The notes: generated by a model not told the origin, from the letters alone. DNA of 64,000 bases from an uncultured Myxococcales bacterium (GCA_964458775.1 CAYWLQ010000009.1:3077-67076), one strand, 5' to 3'; positions 1 to 21,208 are shown, counted from the first letter of the stretch. A program made the numbers and translations.

Positions 1-19
1 GCTGGATAGAAAATGGCGA

Positions 20-610
20 GTGATTGCCATTGCTGGAATTACAGTCGTTTGTTGTTCTGCATGGCCGATGTATACAAGCGGCATTATCGATACATGGACA
101 GCATGGGCCGGCTCTATCTTTGCTTATCAAAACGATTGGCAGACAGATCTAACATTTAAACATGTATTTGGTGTCCGAAGTCTACTTCTACAATTTGGGG
201 GCTCTTGTCCATCGCTTGTTCCTGTTGCGTTAATTATATTGTTAATTCTCTTCCGCTATAGAAACAGGTTTTATCAAGATATATTACCGGGGGTATTCTT
301 CTCAATTTCATTGAGTTTTGTCTATGCCCATGACTACGACTTGGCCGCATGTGCTATTATCGCAACGCCTCTAATATTCCAAATTCAGTCTCGTCCGGTA
401 TTCCAGATAGTTGCCGTTGTTAGCTCACTTTTTCTCTTTTTTCCTCAACGTATCTGGATTTACTTAGGTTTTGACTGGGCAGCTAGAAGCAGAGAAGTTG
501 CATTGATTGTCCTCACTTCATTGTTGTTTTTTTCGATGTCAAAGCACTCCTCAAATTCATCTTCTCACATTGGAAAAACCACTACACGCTCAGGTAAATT
601 GGAAGTATAA
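20..610 (+). CDS. hypothetical polytopic membrane protein; may be the 3' part of a gene that starts before the window
   Basis: Hydrophobic segments throughout and no recognisable catalytic motif. The ORF sits at the window edge. Confidence 0.3.
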   Translation: MIAIAGITVVCCSAWPMYTSGIIDTWTAWAGSIFAYQNDWQTDLTFKHVFGVRSLLLQFGGSCPSLVPVALIILLILFRYRNRFYQDILPGVFFSISLSFVYAHDYDLAACAIIATPLIFQIQSRPVFQIVAVVSSLFLFFPQRIWIYLGFDWAARSREVALIVLTSLLFFSMSKHSSNSSSHIGKTTTRSGKLEV

Positions 611-716
611 TTTGATTTCAAAACAATGAACTATATTAACACATCTCATATGTTAGCGGCAACGGGTCTACCGTTGCATATTTACGCTAGAACACTCCTT
701 AATGAAACTGAAATAG

Positions 717-2210
717 ATGCCGCAATTATCTAATATTTTAAACGCAATAAAAAGGATATTTTCAAACTATGCTGTCTTAAGCATAGGGATTATCCTGTGC
801 ATTGCGGCAATTTTTTGGAATGCACTTAGGATTTATAACAGTTCCGATATTTGTCATGTTTCTGGCGCATGGCTGACTCTAGCGTCCGATTTTGCAAACG
901 GTATTTTCTATCGAGATTTGTATGATAATTCCACTGGATTTGGAGGCACGAGGTTTTTCCCTCTGCTTTTTATTATGCAATCTGGGATTTTCTTTTTTGG
1001 TATGGATACTTTAGTCGGAGCCCATCTAGTGTCTATTGGCATCGGAGTACTATTTCTTGTTCTTCTCGTAAAGTTTATGTTCCGCCTAACTGGTGATAGG
1101 GCAATAGTTTTTGTATTGTTAGGCCTTTTGTTTTTTACCAAACCCTTTATCATGGCCGTCGGTACCGCGAGAGGCGACTTACTTCCAGTTTTATTGAACA
1201 TTGTCGGCATCTATTTTGTACTCTATAACAAATCTCAAATTGAAAAACGGCTTTTAATTGCTACCATCTTCTTTTTGTCGGCTCTATCCGCCAAATTTAC
1301 ATCTATAAACGGTATAACAAGTGTTGTCATCTGGCTGTGGATGCAAGGTGACAAAAGATTATCGATAAAACTATCTGTCATTTACACAGCCGGTGTTTCG
1401 TTGATGCTCGTATTTTTCTATGTATCATCCGGCGGTAGATTTCTCGAAATTTTTACCACTTGCGCGACCGCAGACACTTCGCTTTATTTTATTTTGTCTG
1501 CACCGGTTAGATTTGTAACAAAGTTTTCACCCTATGATTTTTTTTCCACAGTACTTTTCTTGTGGGCATTGTTTTACTCCAGAAATAACACTACTAATTC
1601 TCCGGAAAAAAGCTTGGTATTCTGGTACTTTGTTACATCGATAATTCAAACAGTCATTGTATACTCTTCTCCGGGTACAATTGAAAATCATCTTATAGAC
1701 ATGGTAACCGCCTCTTTGTTGTTTATTGCAATACATCGTAACGAACACAAATTTTACAGAAAAGATTTGGTTCCTTTTTGGATGGGTATATTTTGTTTAT
1801 TGGCAGCAATTGGTATGATGCGCCATGATTTCAACTCTCTTCTCAAAGGCAAAGGCAGATATCCTACCGAATTGATATCATTTTTAAATAATTATAACTC
1901 TATATTGAGTGAAAACCCAACTATCCCTTTGATTGCCGGCAAAACAGTCTTTTTGCAGGATGCATTTATGTACCGGCTGTTTGTCAAAACCGATAAGACC
2001 GCAGAAGCTGAGATGCACCAACTTCTTAGTAAAAAGAAATTTGAAGTTATTGTCCTCATGTATAATGCAGCCCATCCATTTCAAACTAACTGGTATAGTG
2101 AAATTCATTTTGGGAGTTCATTTATTGAGTTGTTAAATCAAAACTATAGATATTCAAAACAGATCGGAGAGCATTACATATATTTGCCAAATGGTTCAAT
2201 TGGAAACTGA
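717..2210 (+). CDS. polytopic membrane protein (about 10 TM) with a C-terminal soluble domain; possibly a GT-C-like membrane glycosyltransferase linked to the polysaccharide locus
   Basis: Many hydrophobic helices and a long C-terminal non-membrane tail. The call is by context only. Confidence 0.3.
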   Translation: MPQLSNILNAIKRIFSNYAVLSIGIILCIAAIFWNALRIYNSSDICHVSGAWLTLASDFANGIFYRDLYDNSTGFGGTRFFPLLFIMQSGIFFFGMDTLVGAHLVSIGIGVLFLVLLVKFMFRLTGDRAIVFVLLGLLFFTKPFIMAVGTARGDLLPVLLNIVGIYFVLYNKSQIEKRLLIATIFFLSALSAKFTSINGITSVVIWLWMQGDKRLSIKLSVIYTAGVSLMLVFFYVSSGGRFLEIFTTCATADTSLYFILSAPVRFVTKFSPYDFFSTVLFLWALFYSRNNTTNSPEKSLVFWYFVTSIIQTVIVYSSPGTIENHLIDMVTASLLFIAIHRNEHKFYRKDLVPFWMGIFCLLAAIGMMRHDFNSLLKGKGRYPTELISFLNNYNSILSENPTIPLIAGKTVFLQDAFMYRLFVKTDKTAEAEMHQLLSKKKFEVIVLMYNAAHPFQTNWYSEIHFGSSFIELLNQNYRYSKQIGEHYIYLPNGSIGN

Positions 2211-2252
2211 TAAGAGTCTCTGTGGCTGGCTTTGTTATGTAAAATTGATGAT

Positions 2253-3803
2253 TTATTTTAGCAATTTGGCAAATCTTGCCTGAATCTTTTCAGGTAATAG
2301 CTTAATTATAAAGATTTTATCTTCCTTTCTAAAAATCAGTACCCAAATAGCGAACAAAATCGCAATACCGGCAATCATGCTTGAAACAGCCAATCGAGCC
2401 CAGCTGTCAATATTGAATAATTTGACTGGCAGCGCGAAAACGATAACAACAGGGATTGACAGCAAGGGATACAGCATGGGCCTTAAAATCGTGCTTAGTT
2501 TTTCATTCATAATCTTTGCAGCATATATGGGTTTGATTATACAACTATCGATTGTAAACATGATCATGCCTGATATTGCGATACCATAAATGCCAAGAGC
2601 AGTGAAATATGAAAGAAATACGGCAATAGCAACGTAAATAAAACCGCACACTAGCGATTGAATTGCAGGCGTTTTTACTCTATTGAAAGATATGAAAACG
2701 GTACCCAAAGAAACAGTTGAAACATGAAGCGGCAACATGACGAGCATGAGACTTAGGAGCATCCAGGTATGGGAAAACTCTTCACCTACCCAGATAGTCA
2801 TTAGATTGTATGATTGAACTACTAAGACACCACAAACAATTGACATGAATACGCCGGTCGATTTGATTGACATTGTCACGACATATTTTAAGCGCTTCAA
2901 ATCATTCCGTGCATATGCTGCCATAATAAGCGGCATGACGAGCGTAGACAATACCGAAACTACTGACATCACAGCGTTTAGCCATTGCTCCGCGACTGCC
3001 CATTCACTGGCTTCAACCACACCAACAAAACGATTGGCAATAAGTATATTCGAACGGGAATATAGCAGAACACCTACCAAACTAACAATACTCCAAACCG
3101 ACATGCGTAGAATTTCTCGGAGTTTTTCTTTGTCAAAGATTCGTGGTTTTATAACCATCTCAGGTGTTAACTTACGCCAGTAATAAACTCGAATAATATT
3201 AGCCAAAATTGACACAATAAGTAACGACAATCCAGTGTAGAAAATTTTTGGAGCATCAAACGTGAAGAATAGAACTATTAAAACTGTGCGCCCGATATGT
3301 TTGAATATCTCTACACCCTGTTCAACATCCAACCTATTGTTAGCAAAGATAGGAGCTGTAAATACTGCGCATCCTACATTTAATACAAAGGCGATCGATG
3401 AAAAGAGCATTAGGGAAAAAAAATCGTCTTTTAACTCTAGCGGAATAGTAAATATTTCCCCAAGACTGTAAAGTATAATCGTCCATACAGGAATTTGGAT
3501 TATAGATAAAACTAAGTTGGCTCGAAGGGCAGTATTAAAAGTATTATTTCCTTCAATCCAATCCTTTCTTTGTATATCAACTATTAGGAACCGAGAAGTT
3601 GCACCGTTAATTGAATTTGTAATAAATATTATATACTCGGACAGCATATAAGCCATGGGTACAAAACCGTACGCAACTTTTCCCAGATGATTTACCAGAT
3701 AAGTAGTAAGCCACATTCCAACTACAATACGTGACGCTACGCCGATGACAATTAAGAGTAAATTCTTAAGAACTTGTTTTTTTTCAGATATTCTTTCAGA
3801 CAT
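2253..3803 (-). CDS. wzx: Wzx-type polysaccharide flippase (MOP/PST superfamily)
   Basis: About 500 aa with 12-14 predicted TM helices, of typical Wzx length and architecture. The likely start is the internal Met (MSERISEKK) preceded by AAGG, so the ORF track's start at 3842 is probably too long. The gene lies inside the glycosyltransferase/Wzy cluster. Confidence 0.6.
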   Translation of the reverse strand: MSERISEKKQVLKNLLLIVIGVASRIVVGMWLTTYLVNHLGKVAYGFVPMAYMLSEYIIFITNSINGATSRFLIVDIQRKDWIEGNNTFNTALRANLVLSIIQIPVWTIILYSLGEIFTIPLELKDDFFSLMLFSSIAFVLNVGCAVFTAPIFANNRLDVEQGVEIFKHIGRTVLIVLFFTFDAPKIFYTGLSLLIVSILANIIRVYYWRKLTPEMVIKPRIFDKEKLREILRMSVWSIVSLVGVLLYSRSNILIANRFVGVVEASEWAVAEQWLNAVMSVVSVLSTLVMPLIMAAYARNDLKRLKYVVTMSIKSTGVFMSIVCGVLVVQSYNLMTIWVGEEFSHTWMLLSLMLVMLPLHVSTVSLGTVFISFNRVKTPAIQSLVCGFIYVAIAVFLSYFTALGIYGIAISGMIMFTIDSCIIKPIYAAKIMNEKLSTILRPMLYPLLSIPVVIVFALPVKLFNIDSWARLAVSSMIAGIAILFAIWVLIFRKEDKIFIIKLLPEKIQARFAKLLK

Positions 3804-3931
3804 TCTCTGAGACCTTTTGTATGAAAACGTTTTACAACGCAATTGGTGGAATGGCTTATCGCAATATGATTAAAATGAGTGTATTTTTTGAAACTCTGCT
3901 TTACAAAAAGCAATCGTATCATATGGAGATA

Positions 3932-4792
3932 CTAAAACTCAAATGCCGCTCTAATATCATTTAGTCTAGTTAAAGATTTCGAAGAAATAGAGACCGCTAC
4001 ATGATGTTCTTTCATTTTCTTTTTAAATTCTACCAGGCCTGCAAGACTCAAAGGTACATGATCGTAATAGTCATGAGTGTGCTTTACCGGATCGTTGTAG
4101 TGTCCGGAGTTGTCTAATCCCAAAACCTGCGATACGTAAATGCCGTAAAGAGTATATTCTGACAATCTGAGTTGACCGCAAAGAACCCTTTGCCAACTTT
4201 TGTTTTGTTTTATTTCTATAGTATGAAACATACTTTTAAGAATTTGTTTTTTCCAAAAAATGAAAGGCGCTACGTAAATATCTGATATCGTGTTGAAACC
4301 ATTTAAGTTAAAAATATCAGCAGAAGTTCTTTGCCAAACGTCAAATTCAGGAATGCTATTTTTCAATGGTTCACAGTATAGGCTGATATTATCCTCTCTT
4401 ACAAAATTTTCCAAACAAAACTTCTTTACGAAAAAAGTATCTGAGTCAATGATTAGGAAAAAGGGCTCCGGCAGCAACTCACCTATGGATAGCTTCACAA
4501 TTTGTTGTCTTATCCAACCTCTCACAGGTAGTGTTTTGAGGCTCAAGTACCATTTTTTTGAAATAGGAAAGGGAATAATCCATCTAGGTAGGAAATCTTC
4601 CTGAAATAATACTTTTGTACGATATGATTCCAAATGTCTAAATAGATAGTAGTCATTTTTTGGAACAATCAAATAGTGTATTATTGAATCTTCTACATAT
4701 CTATTCACGCTATCCACAAGTAATCTACATGGTTCATAATCAATGTGATAGCTGGGCGTTACAATCGCTAGTTGTGTCTTATCAATAGGCAA
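3932..4792 (-). CDS. putative GT-A fold (nucleotide-diphospho-sugar) glycosyltransferase
   Basis: N-terminal 'LAIVTPSYH..' beta-strand start and 'FFLIIDSDTFF' DxD-like motif. Cytoplasmic, and located in the polysaccharide cluster. Confidence 0.4.
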   Translation of the reverse strand: MPIDKTQLAIVTPSYHIDYEPCRLLVDSVNRYVEDSIIHYLIVPKNDYYLFRHLESYRTKVLFQEDFLPRWIIPFPISKKWYLSLKTLPVRGWIRQQIVKLSIGELLPEPFFLIIDSDTFFVKKFCLENFVREDNISLYCEPLKNSIPEFDVWQRTSADIFNLNGFNTISDIYVAPFIFWKKQILKSMFHTIEIKQNKSWQRVLCGQLRLSEYTLYGIYVSQVLGLDNSGHYNDPVKHTHDYYDHVPLSLAGLVEFKKKMKEHHVAVSISSKSLTRLNDIRAAFEF

Positions 4793-5117
4793 GGAAACTA
4801 CTCCTTTTTAAAAATGGCTTTTTAGTTAAGTACACTTTTATTGCCACGTCAACAAAGAGAGAAATTACATATTCATATCTTTAATGAATTCAAATCTTGA
4901 AAAAATCAATTTCTGGTGTGCCGGTCTGAAATTGTTCGATAAAAAGTGATTTAGGGGAAAGTGTCTTGCAATCATCAAGAAGAAGAAATAGATATAGCAA
5001 ACAGTGCAAAAACACTTCAAATTTGATTTCAAATGAGTCAAAAGCGCTGAAAGATTAGACAATAGATTCTCCATGGGCCGGAGGGCTCAGAGCTAACAAT
5101 TTGTACGGAGGACAAAA

Positions 5118-6431
5118 ATGGATATAAGCGTATTTGGACTAGGATATGTAGGCGTCGTGAGCATGGCTTGTTTGGCTTCCAGAGGACATCGAATGATAGG
5201 TGTCGATGTCAATTCAACAAAAATCGATTTGATCAACGACGGGAAGTGCCCGATCGTGGAAAAGGATCTTCCTGAGCTTTTGTTGCTGGGAAAGCAAAAA
5301 GGGCTCATTTCAGCAACAAACAGCGCTGAAAAAGCTATTGCCGAATCAGTGTTGTCTATTATTTGTGTCGGTACTCCCAGTAGGGCAAACGGCAGCCTTA
5401 ATACATCATATCTGGAGAACGTATGTAAAGATATCGCCTTATGCCTGAAAAACAAGGGAGCAGAACATATCCTTGTTTTTCGCAGCACCATGCTGCCGGG
5501 GACGGCGATTGATACAGTCATCCCGCTCCTTGAAAAACATTCCGGTTTGACCGAAGGAAAAGATTTTCACGTTGTCTTTAATCCGGAATTCCTTCGGGAA
5601 GCCACCGCAGTTTTCGATTTCAACAATCCGCCCAAAACCGTAGTGGGCGGAAGAAATCCAGCCATTGTGCTGAAAGTGCTGGATGTCTATCAAGGCATTC
5701 CCGGGCCGATGATCGGCACCACTTTAGAAGCGGCTGAAATGGTCAAGTATCTGGACAACAATTTTCATGCGTTAAAAATTACGTTTGCAAATGAAGTCGG
5801 CCATATTTGCAAAAAGCTGAATATTGACAGTCATAAAGTAATGGAAATCTTTTTACAGGATACCAAGCTGAACATCTCAAGTTACTACCTGTGGCCGGGT
5901 TTTGCTTTCGGCGGATCTTGTCTTCCCAAAGACCTCAGAGCTGTCACCTACTTGTCAAAAATGCTCGACCTGGAAACACCTATGCTCAATTCGATGATGA
6001 TAAGCAACCAGGCCCAAATTCTTGCCGTAATCAAACGCGTAATCGCTCACGGTAAAAAGAAAATCGGAATCGCCGGTTTTAGTTTCAAAGCCGGGACCGA
6101 CGATCTGCGTGAAAGTCCGATGATTGAGGTAATTGAAACATTATTGGGAAAGGGATACGACCTCAAACTCTACGACAAGAATGTCAATCTTGCCAGATTG
6201 ATGGGAGCAAACAAGGACTACATCGAAAACCGAATTCCGCATATCGCTTCTCTGATGGTCAGCACACTGGATGAAATTATTGCAGACAGAGAGTTGATCA
6301 TCGTCGGTAATCGCGCTGAAGAATTTACCCGGTTGTTGACGGTGTGCAGAGAAGACCAAATTATTTTTGATTTGGTTAGAATTGGAAATCAAATCAACTC
6401 AAAGGCGGGATATGATGGAATTTGCTGGTAA
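5118..6431 (+). CDS. NDP-sugar dehydrogenase (UDP-glucose / UDP-ManNAc / GDP-mannose 6-dehydrogenase family)
   Basis: N-terminal Rossmann 'ISVFGLGYVGVV' and the catalytic-Cys motif 'GFAFGGSCLPKDLRA'. 437 aa. Confidence 0.85.
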   Translation: MDISVFGLGYVGVVSMACLASRGHRMIGVDVNSTKIDLINDGKCPIVEKDLPELLLLGKQKGLISATNSAEKAIAESVLSIICVGTPSRANGSLNTSYLENVCKDIALCLKNKGAEHILVFRSTMLPGTAIDTVIPLLEKHSGLTEGKDFHVVFNPEFLREATAVFDFNNPPKTVVGGRNPAIVLKVLDVYQGIPGPMIGTTLEAAEMVKYLDNNFHALKITFANEVGHICKKLNIDSHKVMEIFLQDTKLNISSYYLWPGFAFGGSCLPKDLRAVTYLSKMLDLETPMLNSMMISNQAQILAVIKRVIAHGKKKIGIAGFSFKAGTDDLRESPMIEVIETLLGKGYDLKLYDKNVNLARLMGANKDYIENRIPHIASLMVSTLDEIIADRELIIVGNRAEEFTRLLTVCREDQIIFDLVRIGNQINSKAGYDGICW

Positions 6432-7608
6432 GAAAGTTCTTATTGTTGTCGAAAATTTGCCGAGCCCGTTTGATCGCCGAGTTTGGCAGGAGGCCAACGC
6501 GCTCAAAGAAAAGGGTGCCGTTGTCTCTATCATTTGTCCGACTGGAAAAGGGTATGAGAAAAAATACGAGTGCATTGACGGCATTCATATCTATCGACAC
6601 AACTTGCCCCTGGATGCAGACGGGGCTCTCGGCTACCTTCACGAGTATTCGGCTGCGCTGTTCTGGGAATTTTTTCTCACCTGTAAGGTTCTGGTGAAAC
6701 ATGGTTTTGATGTAATTCATGCATGCAACCCTCCTGATTTAATTTTTCTGACCGCATTGCCGTTTAAACTGTTCGGTAAGAAATTTGTTTTTGATCATCA
6801 CGACATTAATCCGGAGCTCTATATCGCCAAGTTCAATAAGAAAGGTCTCTTCTATCGACTTATGCTGCTGTTTGAGCGCTTAACGTTTGCCGGCGCAGAT
6901 ATGAGCATTGCGACAAATCATTCTTACAAAGAGATAGCGATAACCAGAGGGAAAATGCCTGCCGAGCGCGTTCATGTGGTTAGAAGCGGTCCGAGTCTCG
7001 ATAGACTCAAAATTAAACCGCCGGTGCCGGAATTGAAAAAAGGAAGGAAATATTTGGTCGGCTACGTCGGAGTGATAGGTAAGCAAGAAGGACTGCAATA
7101 CCTAATTGATGCTGCAAGCTACATCGTGAAAAAAAAGAAAAGAGAAGACATTCATTTTATTTGCGTCGGCGGCGGCACAGAATTGGAAAAAGTCAAACAG
7201 TATGGGAGAGAACAAGGCGTTGCAGACTACTTTACTTTTACCGGTCGAGTGCCGGACGAGGAAATGCTTGATGCTCTTAATACCGCAGATGTTTGTGTCA
7301 ATACGGATGAGTACAACGAAATGAATGATAAATCGACTATGAACAAGATCATGGAATACATGGCATTAAAAAAACCGATCGTTCAGTTCGAGCTCAAAGA
7401 AGGCAGGTTCTCGGCACAAGAGGCTTCGCTATATGCCGATAGAAATAATGCTGAAGACATGGCAGAAAAAATTGTGATGCTGTGTGACAATCCGGATATG
7501 CGAACAACGATGGGAGAATTTGGATACAACCGTGTAAAGAATGAGCTGGCTTGGACATATGAAAAGGAAAATCTGTATTCGGCTTACAGACAGATTTGGA
7601 AAAATTGA
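6412..7608 (+). CDS. glycosyltransferase family 4 (GT-B, RfaB-like)
   Basis: 'KVLIVVENLPSP', 'HACNPPDL' and a C-terminal GT4 EX7E-like region. The start overlaps the dehydrogenase stop by about 20 nt, which suggests translational coupling. Confidence 0.8.
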   Translation: MMEFAGKKVLIVVENLPSPFDRRVWQEANALKEKGAVVSIICPTGKGYEKKYECIDGIHIYRHNLPLDADGALGYLHEYSAALFWEFFLTCKVLVKHGFDVIHACNPPDLIFLTALPFKLFGKKFVFDHHDINPELYIAKFNKKGLFYRLMLLFERLTFAGADMSIATNHSYKEIAITRGKMPAERVHVVRSGPSLDRLKIKPPVPELKKGRKYLVGYVGVIGKQEGLQYLIDAASYIVKKKKREDIHFICVGGGTELEKVKQYGREQGVADYFTFTGRVPDEEMLDALNTADVCVNTDEYNEMNDKSTMNKIMEYMALKKPIVQFELKEGRFSAQEASLYADRNNAEDMAEKIVMLCDNPDMRTTMGEFGYNRVKNELAWTYEKENLYSAYRQIWKN

Positions 7609-7633
7609 ATAGTACCATTTTAGACTTGTGCTT

Positions 7634-8806
7634 TCATTCATTCTCAAAAAAACTATTTATTTTCTTATCCAATTCATCAAAAGCCTTATCCCCCAAAATA
7701 AATGAAGAATTCTTTTGCCATGCCCTCTCACTTAATTCTTTCCATCGCTTTTTTTGATCTATCAGATGCTCTAATGCATCAATCAGCGAGGACTCATCCG
7801 AAAAGAAACATGCCGATTGGTCATCCAGATCAAACCCGCGTGCACCAATTTTTGTTGTCAATAGCGGCAATTTTGCGGAAATAAATTCCGCCACTTTGAG
7901 ACTGCTTCCGGAACCGGAGAAGATTGGATTAATTGCAATGTCAGCCATTTTAAAGAACGGTTCGATCCGTGGCACTTTGCCATATGACTCCAAAAGTTCA
8001 TTGTATTTCTTCGCCGGAAGTACACTTCCGACAATTGATATTCTTATTCCTAACTCTTTCAAACGATTGTAATAGTGCTCAGAGAAAGATATTAGAAACT
8101 CAGCTCCCTCAACATTTGGACCATATATACTGGCCGGGAATAATAGAACAGTGTCCTCTATATGAAAACAAAGCTGTGCACGAACCTCAACTTTGAGATT
8201 TTCATCTTCTGAATAGAGACTCGCATCTATTCCGTTCGGCAGTAAATATACCTCTGATTTTCCACCCAAATTTTCGAAATACTCAGCATCCGACGGCGTA
8301 CAACACAAAGTGATATCAGCTAAAAGATGTGCTTCGCTCTCAATATCACGAAGCCGGTTTCTAATTCTTAAAGATTTTGTATATCGAGCATGTTCCACGT
8401 TATGCGTATTAAAAATTTTCAAGCCCTTAAATTTTTTCAGCCCCCAAATCGTATAAGGGGAATCAGAGACTAAAATATCTGCATCAGCCAAATATTTTCT
8501 ATGCAGCATCTTTCCCAAAATACGCAACTTGAAATCGATCCAAAACGCCGGAATACCAAATCGATATCCGATTCTTGACATCAAGGTAAACAATGATGAA
8601 GATTCTGTAACTTCTCCGATTTGCTTTGGATGGTTAATGGGAGCACCGTCGATCAATCGCTTGTTCGCTAATGACAGGATCAATACATCATATCCACGAT
8701 TATTAAAACCATAAGCAATAAAACTAGTACGAAGATTTCCACCGGAAATAACCGGATATACTCTCAAAGGGGAAACAATTACAACCTTCTTTTTTGTTTT
8801 CATCAA
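7634..8806 (-). CDS. glycosyltransferase family 4
   Basis: 'KVVIVSPLRVYPVISGG' N-terminus and GT-B C-terminal domain pattern. 390 aa. Confidence 0.7.
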   Translation of the reverse strand: MMKTKKKVVIVSPLRVYPVISGGNLRTSFIAYGFNNRGYDVLILSLANKRLIDGAPINHPKQIGEVTESSSLFTLMSRIGYRFGIPAFWIDFKLRILGKMLHRKYLADADILVSDSPYTIWGLKKFKGLKIFNTHNVEHARYTKSLRIRNRLRDIESEAHLLADITLCCTPSDAEYFENLGGKSEVYLLPNGIDASLYSEDENLKVEVRAQLCFHIEDTVLLFPASIYGPNVEGAEFLISFSEHYYNRLKELGIRISIVGSVLPAKKYNELLESYGKVPRIEPFFKMADIAINPIFSGSGSSLKVAEFISAKLPLLTTKIGARGFDLDDQSACFFSDESSLIDALEHLIDQKKRWKELSERAWQKNSSFILGDKAFDELDKKINSFFENE

Positions 8807-8932
8807 TCACCGCTCTGAAAAAATTTTTTTTGATAAATAAATAAACATAATCAACTTAGATTATGCATTTATTCTATCTAACTCTTATATCTCATCGATT
8901 TGAATAACTAAGCTAATTTCATATACGCTCTT

Positions 8933-10402: not shown

Positions 10403-10473
10403 ATCCTATTTTTCTTCTAAAACCTGTATTCTTGTATTAAGGAAATTCAGCTACTATGCACCGGCTTGTACTG

Positions 10474-10683
10474 TTACCGCTGCAACCACCACATACTTGG
10501 CGGAGGAGTCGTTTCAATCAAGTCAGCAACGATAAATATAAGAGCCAATGCATACAAAACCACAAAAATAAACACGCCGACAAGAGCTCTTATCAGCCCG
10601 CGTCTAGGAGAAGGAGATCTTGCGAAAAAAGACGGAATACCTACCATCGCAAAAATAATAGAAAGTGCAATAAGTTTGTCCAT
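10474..10683 (-). CDS. small two-TM membrane protein
   Basis: 69 aa with two hydrophobic helices. Its start lies directly next to the stop of the upstream beta-barrel gene. Confidence 0.3.
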   Translation of the reverse strand: MDKLIALSIIFAMVGIPSFFARSPSPRRGLIRALVGVFIFVVLYALALIFIVADLIETTPPPSMWWLQR

Positions 10684-12635: not shown

Positions 12636-12660
12636 ATCTCACCTATTATATTTTTTTCTT

Positions 12661-14124
12661 TCATATTCTATCTGATTCGTCTAACTCACCCAATACCGGG
12701 ATGCCGAGCACGCGTGATACCTGCCATGTCTCCAAAATAAGTCCGGTTTTTAAATCTGCAAAAACCGATAAAAAAGCACCGAGAAACAATCCTGCGACGA
12801 TTGCACCGATTATAATTAACTTTGTTTTTGGACCGCTTGGTCCAGTAGGCATGCGTGGAGGCTGAGTAACTTGAAATCGATATTTGAGAGCGCTTTTCGC
12901 GGCTTCGTATTGGATATTTGCGTTTAGCAGCGCTTCCTCTGCGGTATTTCTGGCAATTTTTGCTCTTGTATACTCTTCTAATTTCTCTTCATCCTCAATA
13001 GAGAGTTTTTGTTCCCTGGAAACAGCAGAAACTGCGCTTGGCCTTCCTCTGCGTATCGTGGGCATCGTAGTAGACGATGCGGCAGCAGCCAGCTCTTTTG
13101 CTTTGGTAATACGGGCCAAAATAGTTTCTTGCTCAGATCTAATCTTTTCAATTGAAGGCGGAGGAGAAGAGAGGAGCTTGACAAGTTGTTCTGCCTTAAT
13201 AACCTCAGGATGTTGCGGTCCCATGGTCAACTGTAGTTCAGCCAATCTACTTTTTGCTTCGTTTACTCTCTGCAAATATGTCTGTTGAAGCAACTCCGTC
13301 TCCCGCCTTTTAAGATTGAGCTCTCGTTCAAGGTCCTCGATATCCTCACCGATTTGAACAGCGGCGGAAGTCGGCTCCGGTTCAATTTTGGGGGATAATA
13401 CCTTTGGGGGTTTCCTATCGGTCTCATCGGATGCAGCAATAGGGATCTTATCCTTGTTATATATTTCACGATAACGTTGTTCTGCATCACTGAGAATTTC
13501 GTCTGCTCTAGCGAGTCGCATTTTGGCCGTTTCAATATTTACCAAATAACCTGTGTCTTCTTGGTTAAGTTGGTCTTCTAAATAATTATTTACGAGTTTT
13601 TCAGCAATAAGAAATGCCATCTTTGCATCTCTCCAAATTACATTAAAAGTAACCACATTACCTTCGGACCAAACGCTAAAATTTTCATAGAAATAATCAG
13701 TTACACCGTCCAGTAATTGTTCTTCTGTGGGAGAGTTGTCTGAAATAAAAGAAAAAATATAAGCTCTAATTTTCCCCAAAGGCGATCTGTTTTTTTGTGC
13801 ACTGTCGACAAGATTTAGATCTTTTACAATAGATTTTATGTTTCCTCTGGATCTGATTAATTCAATAGACGAATTGCGTTCTTCATAAGGCCGGATGTCT
13901 ATTAACTTTCCTGATGGGTGGGTTAAAATACTCGCACTCACACGATATGTTATCGGAAGCACCTGAATCAGCGCGATACTCAAACCGACAACAAAAAACA
14001 GAACCGCTCCAATCATAATTCGATGACGCATTATAGAGCGCCATACGAATCCTATCAAATACCAAGCGTCGCTCAATAAATGCGCCAATTCATTTTCGGT
14101 TTCAACGTTTTTGTTATCTTCCAT
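12661..14124 (-). CDS. polysaccharide co-polymerase (Wzz/PCP family) without a fused kinase domain
   Basis: N-terminal TM, a long coiled-coil periplasmic region, and a C-terminal TM 'KLIIIGAIVAGLFLGAFLSVFADL'. No Walker motifs. Confidence 0.65.
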   Translation of the reverse strand: MEDNKNVETENELAHLLSDAWYLIGFVWRSIMRHRIMIGAVLFFVVGLSIALIQVLPITYRVSASILTHPSGKLIDIRPYEERNSSIELIRSRGNIKSIVKDLNLVDSAQKNRSPLGKIRAYIFSFISDNSPTEEQLLDGVTDYFYENFSVWSEGNVVTFNVIWRDAKMAFLIAEKLVNNYLEDQLNQEDTGYLVNIETAKMRLARADEILSDAEQRYREIYNKDKIPIAASDETDRKPPKVLSPKIEPEPTSAAVQIGEDIEDLERELNLKRRETELLQQTYLQRVNEAKSRLAELQLTMGPQHPEVIKAEQLVKLLSSPPPSIEKIRSEQETILARITKAKELAAAASSTTMPTIRRGRPSAVSAVSREQKLSIEDEEKLEEYTRAKIARNTAEEALLNANIQYEAAKSALKYRFQVTQPPRMPTGPSGPKTKLIIIGAIVAGLFLGAFLSVFADLKTGLILETWQVSRVLGIPVLGELDESDRI

Positions 14125-14304
14125 ATTTTCTTTTCTATTCGTATTGATATCACTACCTACATCAATATCAATTAAATTTGTTACATTTGCTTACACTATT
14201 ATAGTTCTTAATATCAATTTTATTAGTCCATGATGAATACGCTATATAACATCTTTTTTTTCCTGTGAGGAAAAATGCAGATTAAAAGATCTAAGAAAAG
14301 TACG

Positions 14305-16785
14305 TCAGTCTTTTAGCCGCATACCAAGTAGGTAGCCGTATAGAGCGGTCTTGCCGCGCATGGTCTGTTGGGGAGTGAACTCCGAGTGTGCATATACATA
14401 TCTGGTATTGAAAAACATCTCGGCTCGCGGCCAGTTACCCGGTGCTTCGGGATAGCATTTCTCTGTCATCCAGCTGGGTTTACCCATTATACTATTGGGC
14501 GTCCAGTCATTAAGGCCCATATAGGGAGTATGCCCCGGATGCATTCCCGGGGTACCGTCATTTCGGCCGGAGGTATAGGCTGCTTCAATGCTGCGCTTGT
14601 TCGCCAGGGGAGTGGTTGCGGTGGTCATCTGGATGAGGTTGGCCGGATTGCGCCCCATGCTCCAGTCGGCCTCCAGCACCAGTGCCCTTTCGAAGAAGGC
14701 TTTGTCCGCCGGATCCGTTGCAACCGCGTGGGCCAGGATCGTTCGATGAACAAACTGGATGGTGTGAAAGTAGCCTGTCAGGTTATCTGTAGACCGTCTT
14801 GAAGGTCGCGTTTTTGAGTAGCCGGCTTCCTTTTCCTTTGCCTGGCGGATGACTGAGTTTCGCATATCGGCATGAAGCTGTTTATGGTGAACTTCCCGTT
14901 CAGTGGTCAGATAGGCGGCCATGGCATAGAGCTGGTTGCGTTTGAGGTGTTGAGTAAATTCCGAAGTGCCGTCTGTGACGAGGCTCTCTTCTTTTATAAT
15001 ATCTTCATAAGCGGTATCGCCGGTTAGATTATAGAGAAAAGCCGCAGCGGTCATACGAAAATCTCGGCCATAGAAGCCGGATTCTCCCACTCCCTGAAGG
15101 GTATCCGGCATTTGTTCAGGCAGGTTTGATGCGTAGTTCCAAGCTTCCAGAGCCGCATTGAGATAGGTGTCGGATAAATCCTTATTTCCAAAAATTCTAA
15201 ATGCCTCAGACAGCATGGCGGCGTTTGTCGCATTTGCCCACGCCGCAATCGCCGTGTTGTCGGCCTGATACAATATATTGGTTTTCCTGTCCGGATTTGA
15301 CAAACCGTGGCTGTAGCCTCCTTCAAATCGCATAGATAACCAAAAATCGACTTCATTGCGTGCTTCATCGATAATATCCGGGATACCGTTGCCGCTCTCT
15401 GCTATACCCAGCTCGTCCGAGGAGATGGCGCCGCGGGTGAGAATGTACGGCAGGAGCATATCGTAGATGATAGAAACATGTCCAATGTGGCGGTCCCAGT
15501 CCAGTGCGTCGCTGTGGCCTCCCTTTGCGTTAGGATTTTCAGGGCTGCCCTCCTTGATGTACTTGGCAAAGAAATCCGGTTGATCCCATCGATCACCTCC
15601 GCCCTCCCATTCCGGCCTATACGGATGCATGTCAGTAATTAACACCTTGCAGTTCTTGGGATCTTTTCCGGGAATCCATAGGGGACGGCGAGGTACGGGA
15701 GTCATGTCCATGTTGTCCTGACCGATTCGCATGTAGAAGAATCCAAGTACAGAGACCCTAAAAGGCTCAAACACCGCACGCTCGCCTATGACGAAGTTTT
15801 GACTCGCGCCTACCCCTTCAACGACCAATCGGTATACTCCAGGTGCATGATTTCCGTCGAAATCAACATTCCATACATCAGATTGAATTAAATGATATCC
15901 TTGGACCTCGGCACTGTTCTTTTTCCAGAAAGAGACTTTTCCTACTTCATTGGATTCTTTGGTTTCTATATTATACAAGTACACCTTGTTACCTTCGAAA
16001 GACGCATAGTCACGAGCGCCGCCGTCCCCCATCCACATATAAAGATCCGCCGCCTTCACTGCAGACTTAGGATGATACCCCGAAAGGTTTACATGAATCG
16101 CTTCGGAGCGATTATTAAAAATATCAAAGGTAAAGCTATACTTCTCCACATCCGTGTTGGTCGCGGGATCTATAATCAATGTATATGTTTTGCCTTGGAC
16201 CATGGGGCGGGGCAGCTTGAGAAATATATGGTGTTCCATGGTGTGCTCAAATCGATAGTCGTTCCACCTCCATTCCCCTATTGCCATTCCATTCAGCTTT
16301 GACTTTCGATAGCTTGCCGTAGGATGAATTCCTTTATCGCTGTAGTGTTCGTCGTCCGTAGAGGTAACTGTCCAGGACGAAAGGGACCCGGTCGCCGAAG
16401 TGTTTAGCGGCTTGTCATAGCGTACTGTATAGTTATCTATTTGGTCATTGCAGTTTTCATAGGGGCAAGAGTTGTGACCGTTATCTCTGAAGAAAACATC
16501 CCCGTCCCGAAAACGCACCATCAAGTAGTCTTGATCGAGTACCTTTACACCCCTAAACTTCTTTTTTTCAAAGCCCTCTTCATCCGGATCGCGAGATGTA
16601 TCCCATAACGGGTCAGTATCCTTTCCTGAGGTACCGGTCGTTGTGGTTTTCTGTTGTTCATTGATGTGTTCTTCAGAAGAAGACGAGCTTTTCGTGTTGC
16701 ATGCCTTGCTAGCGCAGGCGGCAATCAAGACAGTAAGGCTCAAATAAATCGCTACAGCTCCGAATCGAAAAATTACATTATTCAT
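14305..16785 (-). CDS. secreted lipoprotein, glycoside hydrolase family 9-like (Ig-like N-domain plus (alpha/alpha)6 catalytic domain)
   Basis: Lipobox 'LIAAC'. 'AKGGHSDALDWDRH' resembles the GH9 'GGWYDAGD' motif, with an Ig-like domain upstream of it. The start was taken at MNNVIF (16785), which has an AGGGA RBS. Confidence 0.5.
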   Translation of the reverse strand: MNNVIFRFGAVAIYLSLTVLIAACASKACNTKSSSSSEEHINEQQKTTTTGTSGKDTDPLWDTSRDPDEEGFEKKKFRGVKVLDQDYLMVRFRDGDVFFRDNGHNSCPYENCNDQIDNYTVRYDKPLNTSATGSLSSWTVTSTDDEHYSDKGIHPTASYRKSKLNGMAIGEWRWNDYRFEHTMEHHIFLKLPRPMVQGKTYTLIIDPATNTDVEKYSFTFDIFNNRSEAIHVNLSGYHPKSAVKAADLYMWMGDGGARDYASFEGNKVYLYNIETKESNEVGKVSFWKKNSAEVQGYHLIQSDVWNVDFDGNHAPGVYRLVVEGVGASQNFVIGERAVFEPFRVSVLGFFYMRIGQDNMDMTPVPRRPLWIPGKDPKNCKVLITDMHPYRPEWEGGGDRWDQPDFFAKYIKEGSPENPNAKGGHSDALDWDRHIGHVSIIYDMLLPYILTRGAISSDELGIAESGNGIPDIIDEARNEVDFWLSMRFEGGYSHGLSNPDRKTNILYQADNTAIAAWANATNAAMLSEAFRIFGNKDLSDTYLNAALEAWNYASNLPEQMPDTLQGVGESGFYGRDFRMTAAAFLYNLTGDTAYEDIIKEESLVTDGTSEFTQHLKRNQLYAMAAYLTTEREVHHKQLHADMRNSVIRQAKEKEAGYSKTRPSRRSTDNLTGYFHTIQFVHRTILAHAVATDPADKAFFERALVLEADWSMGRNPANLIQMTTATTPLANKRSIEAAYTSGRNDGTPGMHPGHTPYMGLNDWTPNSIMGKPSWMTEKCYPEAPGNWPRAEMFFNTRYVYAHSEFTPQQTMRGKTALYGYLLGMRLKD

Positions 16786-17051
16786 GTTGTTTCCCTTCCG
16801 CACAGAACCTATTTTTGAATATCTATCAATCCAACAATACAAAACAAACGTTTTCGTAACAATTGCCTTTTGTGAAATGGCACGACTTTGGAAGGAGTCC
16901 CATTCCCGATACTGTTATATCTGTCTAGAAACCGAAAGAAACACCGCAAATCGAAACCCAAACTCTGCCTTAATTGCAAATATACGCGTCATTTTCAATT
17001 GGTTTTTCAGTTGCTAAATTCGAAAGAAGGCTGCCATGGTTATCAGAATGC

Positions 17052-17675
17052 CTACAAAGAGTCTTTAGATTTAGGCTTGAAGACAATACTTCCCAAAACT
17101 TGTTCTTGACCGATAATTTCAACTGTTCTGCGAACATCTTTGAAAGTTGTCCTTCCTAACCTAACGCAAAGTATTACAGCATCCACTTTCCGGCAGAGTG
17201 ATATGGGAGATGTGTTGTTTATCACAGAATTCACAGCGAAAACAAAACGCATATTTTGATTTTGATTTTCATTTTCTGAATATTTATCAAGCATCCACTC
17301 TGCTGTTATAAGTTGCTTTTCCGTCGTCACACCCAGAGTGGGAAGGTCCACGAATTTGTAGGGAAATTTGCTGTCTTCTTGCCCATGAACGCTTAAGTCG
17401 TGTTCGGTAACCTGGTTGTCAGCCCTATTGGAAGCATTCACTACCCAAATCAAATCGTGGGGTTCTCTAACGGCCATCAAACCAATTCCATGTGCAAATT
17501 CCAGAACGTCGATATCGTCGGTTACCGGAACCAGTGCAAGCGAAGCCCATTTCTTTCTCCGTACCATCTCGTACCAGATGTGCTGCACAGCCAAGGGAGG
17601 AAGTGCAGCATCAAGGTAGAGCTTTTTTTCGCTGTGCCTATTTTTTTTAGGGTATCTAGTAATTATATCGGTCAT
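17052..17675 (-). CDS. BY-kinase/ParA-fold-like protein lacking a Walker A P-loop (degenerate)
   Basis: The C-terminal 'VDAVILCVRLGRTTFKDVRRTVEIIGQEQVLGSIVFKP' matches the BY-kinase C-terminal consensus. The expected P-loop position reads 'KKWASLALVPV' instead of GxxGxGKS/T. Confidence 0.35.
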   Translation of the reverse strand: MTDIITRYPKKNRHSEKKLYLDAALPPLAVQHIWYEMVRRKKWASLALVPVTDDIDVLEFAHGIGLMAVREPHDLIWVVNASNRADNQVTEHDLSVHGQEDSKFPYKFVDLPTLGVTTEKQLITAEWMLDKYSENENQNQNMRFVFAVNSVINNTSPISLCRKVDAVILCVRLGRTTFKDVRRTVEIIGQEQVLGSIVFKPKSKDSL

Positions 17676-17905
17676 GTTTGTTATATTACAAATTGTAAGT
17701 CACAATGATATTAAGCGATAATCTTTTTAAGTAAAACAGAAATCATACTGATATAAGTAATCTGTATGTCATTGTGATAAGCAGGCACTAACCTCTTCAA
17801 CTATTAGAACATCTATTCTATTCTGTCGAATACTCAAAGCCGCAAACACTACATGTTCTAAGTTCAGCGAGTTCACTGTGTCACACATGAAAGAAACATA
17901 ATGTT

Positions 17906-19345
17906 TTAGTAGGCGTTCTGTCGTGTCTTGCGCCCGAAAACTGTCAGAAAAATAATTTTTAGGTCGAGCAGCGGGGTCCACTCCCGGATGTAGCGGAGGT
18001 CGTATTCCACGCGTTTTTGCATTTTCTCATCAGTATCGGTTTCACCCCGGTAGCCGTTCACTTGGGCCAAGCCGGTAATGCCCGGTTTTACTTTATGCCT
18101 TACCATGTAGTGATCTATAAGACCGCGATATTGCTCGTTGTGGGCGACCGCATGGGGCCTTGGGCCGACGATGGACATTTTTCCGGTAATCACATGCAGA
18201 AATTGGGGTAACTCGTCCATCGAAGTTTTTCTCAAAAAGGCACCGATCCGTGTTATCCGCGGGTCGTCTTTTGTTGCTTGACGGACATCCGTACCGTTTT
18301 CCATGACGCTCATTGATCGAAACTTCAACACATCAATTGGTTCACCGTTGAGACCGTAGCGAGTTTGTTTGAAAAAAACCGGACCCTTACTGGTCAACTT
18401 AATGGCAAGTGCAATAGCAATCATGGGAATTGCGGTAATGGCTAACAAAACTATACCAAGCAATACATCTTCAATCTGCTTTACCGCACCCATCATACCG
18501 TTGTATGGCGATTCTACGATTCCTAGCACGGACACATCGCCAAGTTGACTCCAACGCGGGGCGGTTCTTCTGGAAAGCAGGTTGAACCCGCTGAAATCGT
18601 GCGCGATGTAAATGGATGCGGTGGTGCGTCCCAATTGCCTTGTCAGTTCGGCAATGCGAGATTCGGCCCTCATGGGTAAGGCGATGTAGACACGATCAAT
18701 ATCTCCATTTTGGGCGCTTTCGACCAGCTCTTGGTAGTTACCTAAGAAGGGGCCGAGGGCTTCGCTGCCATCCGGTCGTCGTTTCACATTACGGTCTTCG
18801 TAATGTCCTACAATATCAATTCCGAGCCAGGGTTTCAGGGTAATACTTTTAGCAAGTTGCGCGCTCATGTTGGTTACGCCGGCAATGACTGCTTTTTTTG
18901 TATTATGACCGCCGGCTCTCACGGTTCTGAGCGCAACAGCTACTAATACGTGGCAGATCGAAACAAACAAGGGAGCCATAATGAACCAGGTTGTTGTAAT
19001 AATGCGAGAATAACTGTCAGTTACTTTGGCCATAAAGCCAATCATCAACAGTCCGGCGATAGCGATAGCCCAGGCAGACCAAATTCGACCGATGTGCCCC
19101 GAAAGATTATCATCCCGATAGGAGCTGTATACTCCGCTTATCTCGGCGAACAAGCCAAAAAGCAATGCTCCCAAAATGCCTGAAACGAGATAAAAACTCA
19201 TCCACGGCTGCCCGAAAATCAAACAGGTTGCATATAGCACCAGCACAATTGTCAAGCCATCCGTAATACGGGCAAGCCACCGCATAATTGTAATATTTTC
19301 AAATATTTTTTGAATTAAGCTAATTTTCAACATACACAATAACAA
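17906..19345 (-). CDS. polyprenyl-phosphate hexose-1-phosphate transferase (WbaP/EpsB-type priming glycosyltransferase)
   Basis: N-terminal TM block, and a C-terminal bacterial sugar transferase domain ('KGPVFFKQTRYGLNGEPIDVLKFRSM', 'DELPQF', 'MSIVGPRPH'). Confidence 0.85.
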   Translation of the reverse strand: MLLCMLKISLIQKIFENITIMRWLARITDGLTIVLVLYATCLIFGQPWMSFYLVSGILGALLFGLFAEISGVYSSYRDDNLSGHIGRIWSAWAIAIAGLLMIGFMAKVTDSYSRIITTTWFIMAPLFVSICHVLVAVALRTVRAGGHNTKKAVIAGVTNMSAQLAKSITLKPWLGIDIVGHYEDRNVKRRPDGSEALGPFLGNYQELVESAQNGDIDRVYIALPMRAESRIAELTRQLGRTTASIYIAHDFSGFNLLSRRTAPRWSQLGDVSVLGIVESPYNGMMGAVKQIEDVLLGIVLLAITAIPMIAIALAIKLTSKGPVFFKQTRYGLNGEPIDVLKFRSMSVMENGTDVRQATKDDPRITRIGAFLRKTSMDELPQFLHVITGKMSIVGPRPHAVAHNEQYRGLIDHYMVRHKVKPGITGLAQVNGYRGETDTDEKMQKRVEYDLRYIREWTPLLDLKIIFLTVFGRKTRQNAY

Positions 19346-19435
19346 ATAAGATTGCCCCCTTTAAGATATATTTTCGGCAACTAAATAACCGACTAATTTT
19401 TCTTTGTCAAACAACAATTTTGCAAATATCAATCA

Positions 19436-21208
19436 CTACTTTTTTTCGTCAAACTTACCTTTAGTTTTTGGTGCATCAACACCGATCAGGGTTGCTCTGG
19501 CAGAGTCGATGGGGGGAATTGTGCTAATGGGTTCACGATTAGCGGCCGGCGGAACTGAGCTTGTTTTTCTTATCGAGTGTTGGACCATGGTGTCCTTCTT
19601 AATCGTTTTCTCCAATTCCTTCATCATAGCTTCCATCTGTTGAAATCGAATCTCCAGGGACAATAACCCTGCATTTGTACCGGTCTTGGTTTGGTCGTCT
19701 TTTTTGTTATTAGTGTCAAGCAACGGCTCTGTCTTACTAAGCTTTGATTCCAAGCCGCTTAGGCGTTCCTCAAAAGATGCGATAATCGTCTGGGGGCTCT
19801 TGGATAATGCTTTGGACTGTTGCTCCAATTCGGTTAATGCCGCTTCAAATGCTGAAAATCGTCGGTCCATTCCGGCCAAATGATTTTTTATCGACAACTG
19901 CGCTTTTTTCAATTCTTCTATTTCTTCCAGATTATCGCTTTTAGGAACAGCATCACTTGATGCAGATGTTCTTCCTTCAACGAGTTCGGAGGACCTTTGC
20001 TCCAGCTTTTTAACCCGGCTCTCAAGCTTCTTGAGGACTATCTGGGTATCCCACAAATCTTCGAATTGACCGGCAAAATTTTCACTGTGCTCTCCTGCAC
20101 CGACCGACCGTCCCAGCCGAGCTATCGCAATCTCAATATCGGCAAAGCGACTTTCGATTTCTAAAGACAGTGATTCCAACTCACCTTTTCCAATTCCGGA
20201 ATCGGGTTTGGGCGGTACGGAAGAAAGTCCGGTAATTTGACTTAAAAGATCATCAATACGGTCTTGAAAATAGAACTCCCGCTCAGTGCCCTTCCCTTCC
20301 ATATTGGTTATTGCGGCTTGGAGAGCATCAATCTGAGAATTTCTCTCATGAGCCGACAGACTAATCCTTTCCATGTTTACTTCGATCTGCCTATCAGCGG
20401 GTTGCATCTTTGCCGAGGGGTCTTTCAAAACAGCATAAATCTCGTCAATCGTACGATCGCTTTTTGCAGCAACCGCCTTAATCATAGATTTAAGTTCAGC
20501 GTAAAACTCGGCTCCCTCAGCTGCCACAGCGTTGATGAACAGTCCGTTATCCGTAACGGAATTTCGAGTTTCTTGCGTTAGCTCGTTCAGCTGCTTTTGA
20601 AGCTCTAGTATCATCTCAGACTGTCTAGATAGCCGGTCTGCAAACACATTTGATATTTTATGCTGCGATTCGACAGCTTCTACTGAAACATCGAAGCCTT
20701 TTGACAACTCCAACGGTGAGACACTGTTCGTCACCGGCATTTTCGAATTAGAGCTGACCTTTTGCGATGTTGGTTCGTAATTTTGTGCATCTGTTGCTTT
20801 GGGCGGAGGAGGGTAGCTGTCCGTGCTGTGCACACCGAACAACGGATTAACGAGCAGCTTTTGAGCCAGATTGACAACAGCCTCCACTTCACGACGGTCT
20901 ACGATATGTCGAATCCCTTCAAGGCTAACAACGGCTTCCTTTGAATTTGCCACAACAATTACCGGAATATTGGTGCGGGCCGCAAGGCGAAATAGCAGAT
21001 TGAATTCCCCTGCATTTTCATCAATTCCACAAATAACAAGAGCAGGAGAATTAAGATGAAAACGCCGCATCGCCGTCGAAAAATCTGATACCTTAACAAT
21101 CTTGAGCCGGCCTTCCTCCCGATTGTCTAATATAGTACAAAATTCGTCTGCATTAACCGCCAATACAGTGAGCACCTGACTCACATCTTCTTTATGGTTA
21201 CCATCCAT
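19436..21208 (-). CDS. FrzS/AglZ-like protein: N-terminal pseudo-receiver domain plus a long coiled coil
   Basis: The first 120 aa or so follow the REC pattern ('VLTVLAVNAD', 'PALVICGID', 'IPVIVVANS') with a degenerate acidic pocket. About 400 aa of heptad-rich, Glu/Leu/Lys/Ser-rich coiled coil follow. Confidence 0.4.
   Translation of the reverse strand: MDGNHKEDVSQVLTVLAVNADEFCTILDNREEGRLKIVKVSDFSTAMRRFHLNSPALVICGIDENAGEFNLLFRLAARTNIPVIVVANSKEAVVSLEGIRHIVDRREVEAVVNLAQKLLVNPLFGVHSTDSYPPPPKATDAQNYEPTSQKVSSNSKMPVTNSVSPLELSKGFDVSVEAVESQHKISNVFADRLSRQSEMILELQKQLNELTQETRNSVTDNGLFINAVAAEGAEFYAELKSMIKAVAAKSDRTIDEIYAVLKDPSAKMQPADRQIEVNMERISLSAHERNSQIDALQAAITNMEGKGTEREFYFQDRIDDLLSQITGLSSVPPKPDSGIGKGELESLSLEIESRFADIEIAIARLGRSVGAGEHSENFAGQFEDLWDTQIVLKKLESRVKKLEQRSSELVEGRTSASSDAVPKSDNLEEIEELKKAQLSIKNHLAGMDRRFSAFEAALTELEQQSKALSKSPQTIIASFEERLSGLESKLSKTEPLLDTNNKKDDQTKTGTNAGLLSLEIRFQQMEAMMKELEKTIKKDTMVQHSIRKTSSVPPAANREPISTIPPIDSARATLIGVDAPKTKGKFDEKK

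Follow-up and report, generated by a model that had tools for sequence, protein, structure and literature searches.

How does a polysaccharide leave the cell when the export protein encoded beside its polymerization machinery appears too short to span the outer membrane? This question is raised by a gene cluster of an uncultured Myxococcales bacterium (GCA_964458775.1 CAYWLQ010000009.1:3077-67076). The whole stretch of DNA that was analyzed comprises 64,000 nucleotides and is called the window here. Positions 2253-19345 of the window are an intact Wzx/Wzy pathway gene cluster, in which an initiating phosphoglycosyl transferase (PGT), a Wzx flippase and a Wzy polymerase are all encoded in one locus. 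We estimate a probability of about 80% that the cluster directs a Wzx/Wzy pathway whose product is a heteropolysaccharide, secreted or capsular, and whose export end is of the Myxococcus exopolysaccharide (EPS) type, that is, has an OPX (outer-membrane polysaccharide export) protein of class 3. The class-3 export model itself has been published (PMC9601211, PMC9603273, PMC12819527). An earlier reading of the same DNA (the original prediction) had proposed a class-3 OPX/Wzp-porin arrangement. Our analysis agrees with this proposal, since it revealed a polysaccharide co-polymerase (PCP) without a kinase domain, an OPX protein built of domains D1 and D2 (D1D2) and an adjacent 18-stranded barrel, and since the Eps models were the best curated matches.

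Sixteen intact open reading frames (ORFs) lie within the first 21 kb. Families were assigned to the ORFs of the window by profile searches with Pfam and NCBIfam. Related loci were available from five metagenomic contigs (L001-L005). The genes of the cluster and two flanking genes are the following (BY kinase, bacterial tyrosine kinase; GH, glycoside hydrolase; GT, glycosyltransferase; TM, transmembrane).

717-2210 (+): polytopic membrane protein, 497 residues, multiple hydrophobic segments; membership in the locus uncertain
2253-3842 (-): Wzx flippase; Polysacc_synt at 36.1 bits (cut-off 28.2), about 12-14 hydrophobic segments
3932-4792 (-): DUF6492 protein, possible GT-A-type transferase; PF20102, E 2e-29
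5118-6431 (+): NDP-sugar 6-dehydrogenase; three UDPG_MGDP_dh domains, TIGR03026 at 394 bits, over the cut-off
6367-7608 (+): GT4 glycosyltransferase; Glyco_trans_1_4, Glycos_transf_1, Glyco_transf_4; true start probably near 6412
7634-8806 (-): GT4 glycosyltransferase; Glyco_trans_1_4 and Glyco_transf_4; 56% identity to its L001 counterpart
8933-10402 (-): Wzy repeat-unit polymerase; Wzy_C; NCBIfam Wzy_EPS, E 4.7e-91 over residues 9-483
10474-10683 (-): 69-residue protein with two TM segments; its start codon adjoins the barrel stop codon; conserved after the barrel in L001-L005
10684-12039 (-): 451-residue, 18-stranded outer-membrane beta-barrel according to its predicted structure; EpsX/Wzp-like porin
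12036-12635 (-): class-3/D1D2 OPX protein, EpsY-like, 199 residues, probable lipoprotein; Poly_export and SLBB_2
12661-14124 (-): PCP-2-type co-polymerase, EpsV-like, 487 residues, without a kinase domain; NCBIfam EpsV, E 1e-40
14305-16842 (-): GH9 glycoside hydrolase, 845 residues, N-terminus hydrophobic (signal or anchor); Glyco_hydro_9, E 5e-17
17052-17675 (-): stand-alone BY-kinase-like protein, 207 residues, without Walker A motif or Tyr tail
17906-19345 (-): initiating polyprenyl-phosphate hexose-1-phosphate transferase, a large monotopic PGT of the WcaJ type; Bac_transf and CoA_binding_3
19436-21208 (-): coiled-coil-rich protein, 590 residues, upstream of the primer gene; membership in the locus uncertain

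The export proteins

The OPX protein of 199 residues contains a Poly_export domain (PF02563) at residues 39-110, detected with 63.1 bits (cut-off 28), and an SLBB_2 domain at residues 120-198. The protein stops with this second domain, and neither Wza_C nor GfcC was matched even at E ≤ 10. Thus, the original description of a polysaccharide export sequence (PES) plus SLBB protein without a C-terminal helix was correct. The best match among the NCBIfam models was EpsY (E 7e-40). The best match in the PDB was entry 9n9a (E 1e-15), a short OPX protein of 186 residues which we take to be probably the structure of WzaB. A phmmer search against all six-frame ORFs of at least 50 residues revealed no second OPX protein in the 64-kb window. 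A full-length Wza homolog, named beforehand as a finding that would contradict the class-3 reading, was likewise absent from these ORFs. Class 3 is delimited by a length of at most 280 residues and a barrel gene within five genes; here the OPX protein has 199 residues, and the barrel gene is adjacent with an overlap of 4 nt.

The OPX protein is probably a lipoprotein, and its Cys20, with which the signal region ends, was invariant in seven of seven homologs. Lipidation via a type-2 signal peptide is typical of short class-3 OPX proteins but not universal among them (Saidi/Schwabe et al. 2022). At the other end of the protein, the C-terminus ...GD(V/I/A)I(I/V)VE was invariant in the window and in L001-L005, and a distant homolog from locus L006 ends with ...IIVP.

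The co-polymerase possesses TM helices at residues 38-56 and 436-454, a long periplasmic domain between them and a C-terminal tail of 33 residues. NCBIfam EpsV was the best model and covered residues 24-482 of 487. Matches to Wzz and GNVR were weak, and no kinase domain was detected at E ≤ 10. The absence of a fused BY kinase, as originally predicted, was therefore confirmed by the short tail and the lack of a kinase domain match.

The genes for the OPX protein and the barrel meet at the junction GTA GAA TGA / ATG AAT. The stop codon of the former and the start codon of the latter overlap by 4 nt (ATGA), which corroborates the coupling of the OPX gene to the 451-residue gene that had been proposed. 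This overlap was kept in all six loci, that is, in the window and the five relatives.

The 451-residue protein was matched by no family in Pfam or NCBIfam, and none of the solved barrel structures was related to it in sequence. Its structure was predicted by AlphaFold2 using an alignment of 32 sequences as input. The resulting model was confident, with a mean predicted local distance difference test score (pLDDT) of 83.3 and a predicted template modeling score (pTM) of 0.78, and comprised a signal helix at residues 3-20 followed by exactly 18 strands. Consequently, the postulated beta-barrel was recovered together with its signal peptide. All fold matches obtained with this model in Foldseek were outer-membrane barrels, and the top template modeling scores belonged to 18-stranded ones (AlgE with 0.46, chitoporin and Occ porins). 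The strands are amphipathic with alternating hydrophobic and polar faces. According to a crude count, the lumen-facing positions hold 15 Arg, no Lys and 10 Asp/Glu, and the mature protein is net negative overall. The excess of Arg in the modeled lumen would fit an anionic cargo, for which it provides crude support.

An exhaustive HMMER search among 1.84 billion proteins yielded 56 representatives of the barrel family at E ≤ 1e-3. In one genome per GTDB species no member of the family was found by a peptide-pattern scan followed by tblastn. Ten of 32 family members matched the NCBIfam EpsX model. Homolog P0014 showed an E value of 1e-7 to EpsX and of 7e-18 to the profile of the window barrel, and for the close homolog P0003 a faint precomputed match to PF28089, the EpsX family of Pfam, was available.

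The kinase-like protein and the 69-residue protein

The original prediction had called the PCP kinase-less. This holds for the absence of a fused kinase, but the label is incomplete because a stand-alone gene for a degenerate BY-kinase-like protein lies nearby. This gene for a protein of 207 residues is located two genes away from that of the PCP, and its synteny extends to four relatives (L001 and L003-L005). The protein had no Pfam match, and a profile search of the PDB remained empty. Its nine relatives are conserved over their full length at 51-73% identity, and in nine of the ten family members the C-terminal half of TIGR03018, a BY-kinase model, was matched.

Genuine BY kinases from Desulfobacterales genomes, which had been found with the alignment of the 207-residue family and are not relatives of the locus, served as comparators. 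They carry the Walker A motif GEGKS, the Walker A' motif DCDLR, the Walker B motif DSPP and Tyr-rich tails. An hhalign comparison of the 207-residue family with these enzymes gave a probability of 96% and an E value of 4e-9 over 80 columns. In the window, the 207-residue gene was the sole ORF matched by the genuine BY kinases (phmmer, E 9e-8), and no genuine BY kinase was found. A GK[ST] motif was present in the N-terminal half of none of the ten family members, Tyr was missing from the last 20 residues throughout the family, and the Asp of Walker B is replaced by Asn in the window protein. Since the Walker A motif and the Tyr tail are lacking, an EcpK-like pseudokinase is the probable partner of the PCP, as far as sequence comparison can tell. 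Such pairs of a BY pseudokinase and a PCP-2 protein have been described for EcpK/EpsV and HfsB/HfsA (PMC12004946).

These comparators include the genuine BY kinases of the Desulfobacterales loci L006 (7701-11122) and L010 (8384-10177); Desulfonema magnum encodes two of them in tandem. A PCP and a short OPX protein of about 200 residues adjoin the BY kinase of L006.

The protein of 69 residues encoded directly after the barrel contains TM segments at residues 3-21 and 34-52 and a positively charged loop. It matched no known family and was not found in JGI metagenome contigs by a pattern scan. The ORF follows the barrel gene in five of five relatives, with 46-59% identity. Comparison with L001 gave proportions of 0.26 for nonsynonymous (pN) and 0.64 for synonymous (pS) differences, which shows that the ORF is under purifying selection. 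The order PCP, OPX protein, barrel and 69-residue protein is common to L001-L005. In L001 and L003-L005 the pseudokinase-like gene is additionally found upstream, with or without a glycosyltransferase gene in between, and the Wzy gene downstream; L002 is a short contig which covers only the part from the PCP gene to the 69-residue gene. Speculatively, this small clade might represent a distinct class-3 OPX/porin subtype in which the 69-residue protein would serve as an extra, previously undescribed component, for instance in coupling or gating of the assembly of barrel, OPX protein and PCP, and in which the OPX protein would dock via its ...IVVE C-terminus instead of a Phe-Phe motif like that of WzaB. 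We regard this proposal as rather doubtful.

The proposed pathway and its alternatives

The initiating transferase matched TIGR03023 (WcaJ_sugtrans) with 499.5 bits (cut-off 410.75) and the EpsZ model with 141 bits. It had been designated a WbaP-like primer. This name is not retained here, because the protein passed the equivalog cut-off for WcaJ, a Glc-1-P transferase, and not the one for WbaP. The NDP-sugar dehydrogenase was present as predicted, with its three UDPG_MGDP_dh domains and its TIGR03026 score over the cut-off. Judged by model scores, it is closest to UDP-glucose 6-dehydrogenases (AglM 279 and TuaD 219 bits, compared with 151 bits for UDP-ManNAc dehydrogenase). Pfam GT4 domains at 6367-7608 (+) and 7634-8806 (-) verified both expected GT4 enzymes, and Wzx (Polysacc_synt) and Wzy (Wzy_C and Wzy_EPS) were found as well. 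A single GT-A transferase had also been announced. The gene exists at 3932-4792, but its Pfam family is DUF6492 and its assignment to GT-A is only possible. In the protein, a DSD motif at residues 116-118 follows a hydrophobic strand, and a PDB search gave no solved relative. Altogether, every gene named in the original list was located where it had been placed, but the genes for GH9, the 207-residue protein and the 69-residue protein had been overlooked.

The GH9 protein matched CelD endoglucanases in the PDB (E 3.5e-13). A GH5 'Cellulase' gene takes its place in L003 (12077-13285), L004 (9217-10287) and L005 (9071-10258). A glycoside hydrolase thus accompanies this type of locus as a constant accessory, and its family varies between GH9 (CelD-like) and GH5. 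This varying accessory hints at a beta-glucan-like backbone.

We propose the following pathway. The WcaJ-type transferase would place a hexose-1-phosphate, probably glucose, on undecaprenyl phosphate, and the two GT4 enzymes, possibly together with the DUF6492 protein, would finish a short repeat unit. This unit probably contains a uronic acid provided by the NDP-sugar dehydrogenase. Wzx would flip the repeat unit over the inner membrane, and Wzy together with the EpsV-like, kinase-less PCP-2 protein would polymerize the repeat units. Binding of the 207-residue pseudokinase-like protein, and not tyrosine phosphorylation, probably determines the oligomeric state of the PCP. The polymer would then pass through a periplasmic ring formed by the 199-residue D1D2 OPX protein, which by itself would be unable to span the outer membrane, and would exit via the adjacent, translationally coupled 18-stranded barrel with the OPX ring docked beneath it. 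GH9 probably trims or releases the polymer. An acidic polymer can reasonably be expected, and EPS is a reasonable assignment of the product rather than O-antigen.

Several observations weigh against this pathway. The best NCBIfam models for the OPX protein, the PCP and Wzy were EpsY, EpsV and Wzy_EPS from Myxococcus xanthus, but the scores stayed far under the equivalog cut-offs (136 vs 320, 140 vs 800 and 306 vs 670). Therefore, the proteins are distant homologs of the M. xanthus EPS proteins and not orthologs. On these matches the core machinery as a whole is nonetheless best described as a distant homolog of the myxobacterial EPS machinery, more than an analog. The window barrel itself fell below the NCBIfam EpsX model (NF041842), and its putative link to EpsX is transitive via family members. 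The lipobox of the OPX protein is non-canonical, with Gln at position -3 in the window protein and in several close relatives. Furthermore, the contact motifs of WzaB, a C-terminal Phe-Phe and a twin-Arg, are absent from the OPX protein, in which the twin-Arg corresponds to His-Asp. As these motifs are not conserved, the interfaces must differ in detail, and the contacts of the OPX protein, if they exist, would use other residues. Finally, the AlphaFold2 model of the 207-residue protein reached a pLDDT of only 36, and the alignment to BY kinases covers only its C-terminal 80 residues or so.

The last two points would also suit a remnant of a decayed kinase, or else a small, unrelated regulator, in which case the PCP would act without a cytoplasmic partner; a direct match of the 207-residue protein to a named pseudokinase family was not obtained either. 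We consider this explanation unlikely in view of the full-length conservation of the nine relatives, the synteny of the gene with the PCP gene in four other loci and the conserved cytoplasmic tail of 33 residues which the PCP retains. Moreover, EcpK/EpsV and HfsB/HfsA are published precedents for a pseudokinase partner (PMC12004946). Even less credit can be given to the idea that the barrel anchors a capsule as a lectin of the Wzi kind, or is a general porin lying near the OPX gene by chance, and that the polymer exits elsewhere. The 4-nt overlap retained in six loci, the missing membrane-spanning domain of the OPX protein in a window without another OPX protein, and the EpsX matches of barrel-family members all speak against it. 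Pfam gave no Wzi match for the barrel at E ≤ 10, and EpsX and WzpB have been shown experimentally to be required for export (PMC9601211, PMC12819527), which makes a barrel other than the exit pore highly improbable.

As to the product, the same machinery could, instead of free EPS, make a polymer that stays attached to the cell as a capsule or coat, as in the spore-coat pathway of M. xanthus. M. xanthus uses one PCP/OPX/barrel plan for EPS, spore coat and biosurfactant polysaccharide (BPS) (PMC9601211), and the sequence holds nothing that separates secreted from attached products. An attached polymer is thus a genuine possibility, albeit not the one we favor, because the best curated matches (EpsY, EpsV and Wzy_EPS) are models of the EPS pathway and because no Wzi-type anchor was found with Pfam.

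Relation to known systems and to the source lineage

The EPS system of M. xanthus (EpsZ, Wzx, Wzy, EpsV, EpsY, EpsX and EcpK) resembles the locus in the Wzx/Wzy pathway and the kinase-less PCP-2 protein, in the D1D2 OPX protein of about 200 residues, in the adjacent 18-stranded barrel and in the stand-alone kinase-like protein without catalytic motifs. The two differ in guanine-plus-cytosine (GC) content, which is about 40% here and higher in M. xanthus, with about 69%. Here the primer is of the WcaJ type, and the pseudokinase-like gene lies two genes away from that of the PCP, whereas it is found in a second cluster in M. xanthus. An EpsW-type receiver was not found in the locus; GH9 and the conserved 69-residue membrane protein, in contrast, are present in it. 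The M. xanthus BPS system WzcB-WzaB-WzpB (PMC12819527) also pairs a class-3 OPX protein with a Wzp porin, although docking is a proposal in the present case. WzcB carries an active fused kinase which the PCP described here lacks, and WzaB has a C-terminal Phe-Phe and a twin-Arg where the OPX protein has ...GD(V/I)I(I/V)VE and His-Asp.

In Caulobacter crescentus, HfsA/HfsB likewise combine a kinase-less PCP with a stand-alone kinase-like protein without catalytic residues or Tyr tail (PMC12004946), whereas the export components of the holdfast pathway are different. An OPX protein of at most 280 residues without a C-terminal helix beside an outer-membrane barrel is also found in Vibrio cholerae VpsN/VpsM and in the pairs of Schwabe et al. 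2022; compared with the latter, the barrel family found here is small, with its 56 representatives. Wza of the Escherichia coli Wza-Wzc system, a class-1 OPX protein, aligns to the OPX protein over D1-D2 only (Wza residues 59-227, approximately). D3 and the amphipathic helix of D4, which forms the outer-membrane pore of Wza, are missing here, as are a kinase in the PCP and a Wzb phosphatase. The porins AlgE, PgaA, BcsC and PelB of synthase pathways show no sequence similarity to the barrel, which has no TPR or periplasmic domain and, unlike them, is paired with an OPX protein in a Wzx/Wzy pathway.

The leftmost part of the window encodes two polytopic membrane proteins without a family match, at 20-610 (+), an ORF that may be cut by the window edge, and at 717-2210 (+), for which neither Pfam nor NCBIfam gave a match. 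They may represent additional enzymes for polysaccharide modification or of a GT-C-like kind. The 590-residue protein on the other side of the cluster gave only weak coiled-coil-type matches in Pfam and NCBIfam. A receiver-like domain at its N-terminus was considered and dropped, since Pfam gave no support for it and a PDB search with the N-terminal 130 residues found no receiver domain. Outside the locus, a single ORF of 499 residues (23973-25472 (-)) unites the catalytic (OTCace_N and OTCace) and regulatory (PyrI and PyrI_C) domains of aspartate carbamoyltransferase and represents a fused PyrB-PyrI. Three genes for Hanks-type Ser/Thr kinases lie within 20 kb (22312-24012 (-), 29352-31136 (+) and 40580-43144 (+)); one product has a PEGA domain, and another, of 854 residues, has two or three kinase-like stretches and a TPR-like tail. 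The protein encoded at 59898-61781 best matched the receiver regions of myxobacterial EspA/EspC. The only Rfam match in the window was one tRNA, outside the locus.

BamA (52564-55086 (-)), ribosomal protein S1 (61835-63562 (-)), the OPX protein and the barrel are singletons at 90% identity; for BamA and ribosomal protein S1 the look-up covered about 15 billion proteins. The source lineage is very sparsely sampled, as the singleton status of BamA and ribosomal protein S1 indicates.

Among the classes of OPX proteins, class 3 is the most frequent, with about 46-49% of the total (PMC9603273), and 453 pairs of a short OPX protein and a barrel have been reported from 10 phyla (PMC9601211). The original prediction had pointed to the occurrence of the arrangement in a low-GC genome. 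The GC content along the window is indeed 35-48%, but its noteworthiness was not borne out, because such an occurrence is to be expected in a class so widespread. The arrangement of OPX protein and barrel was defined in 2022; publications on the pseudokinase partnership (2025) and on a biochemical mechanism (2026) followed. Thus, the locus is a new, divergent example of a known and widespread system and not a new kind of system, and it leaves the current understanding unchanged.

Within these limits, the locus is a low-GC, uncultured and divergent addition to the class of composite OPX/beta-barrel translocons. Its practical value is that of comparative material, as its contact motifs are unlike those mapped in WzaB, and with the conserved 69-residue protein it offers a concrete candidate for a component still missing from the translocon. 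Here a kinase-less PCP, a probable pseudokinase, a D1D2 OPX protein and a barrel travel together outside the characterized myxobacteria. The locus thereby lends support to the view, already published, that PCP-2 systems independent of phosphorylation and porins of the Wzp type are of general occurrence.

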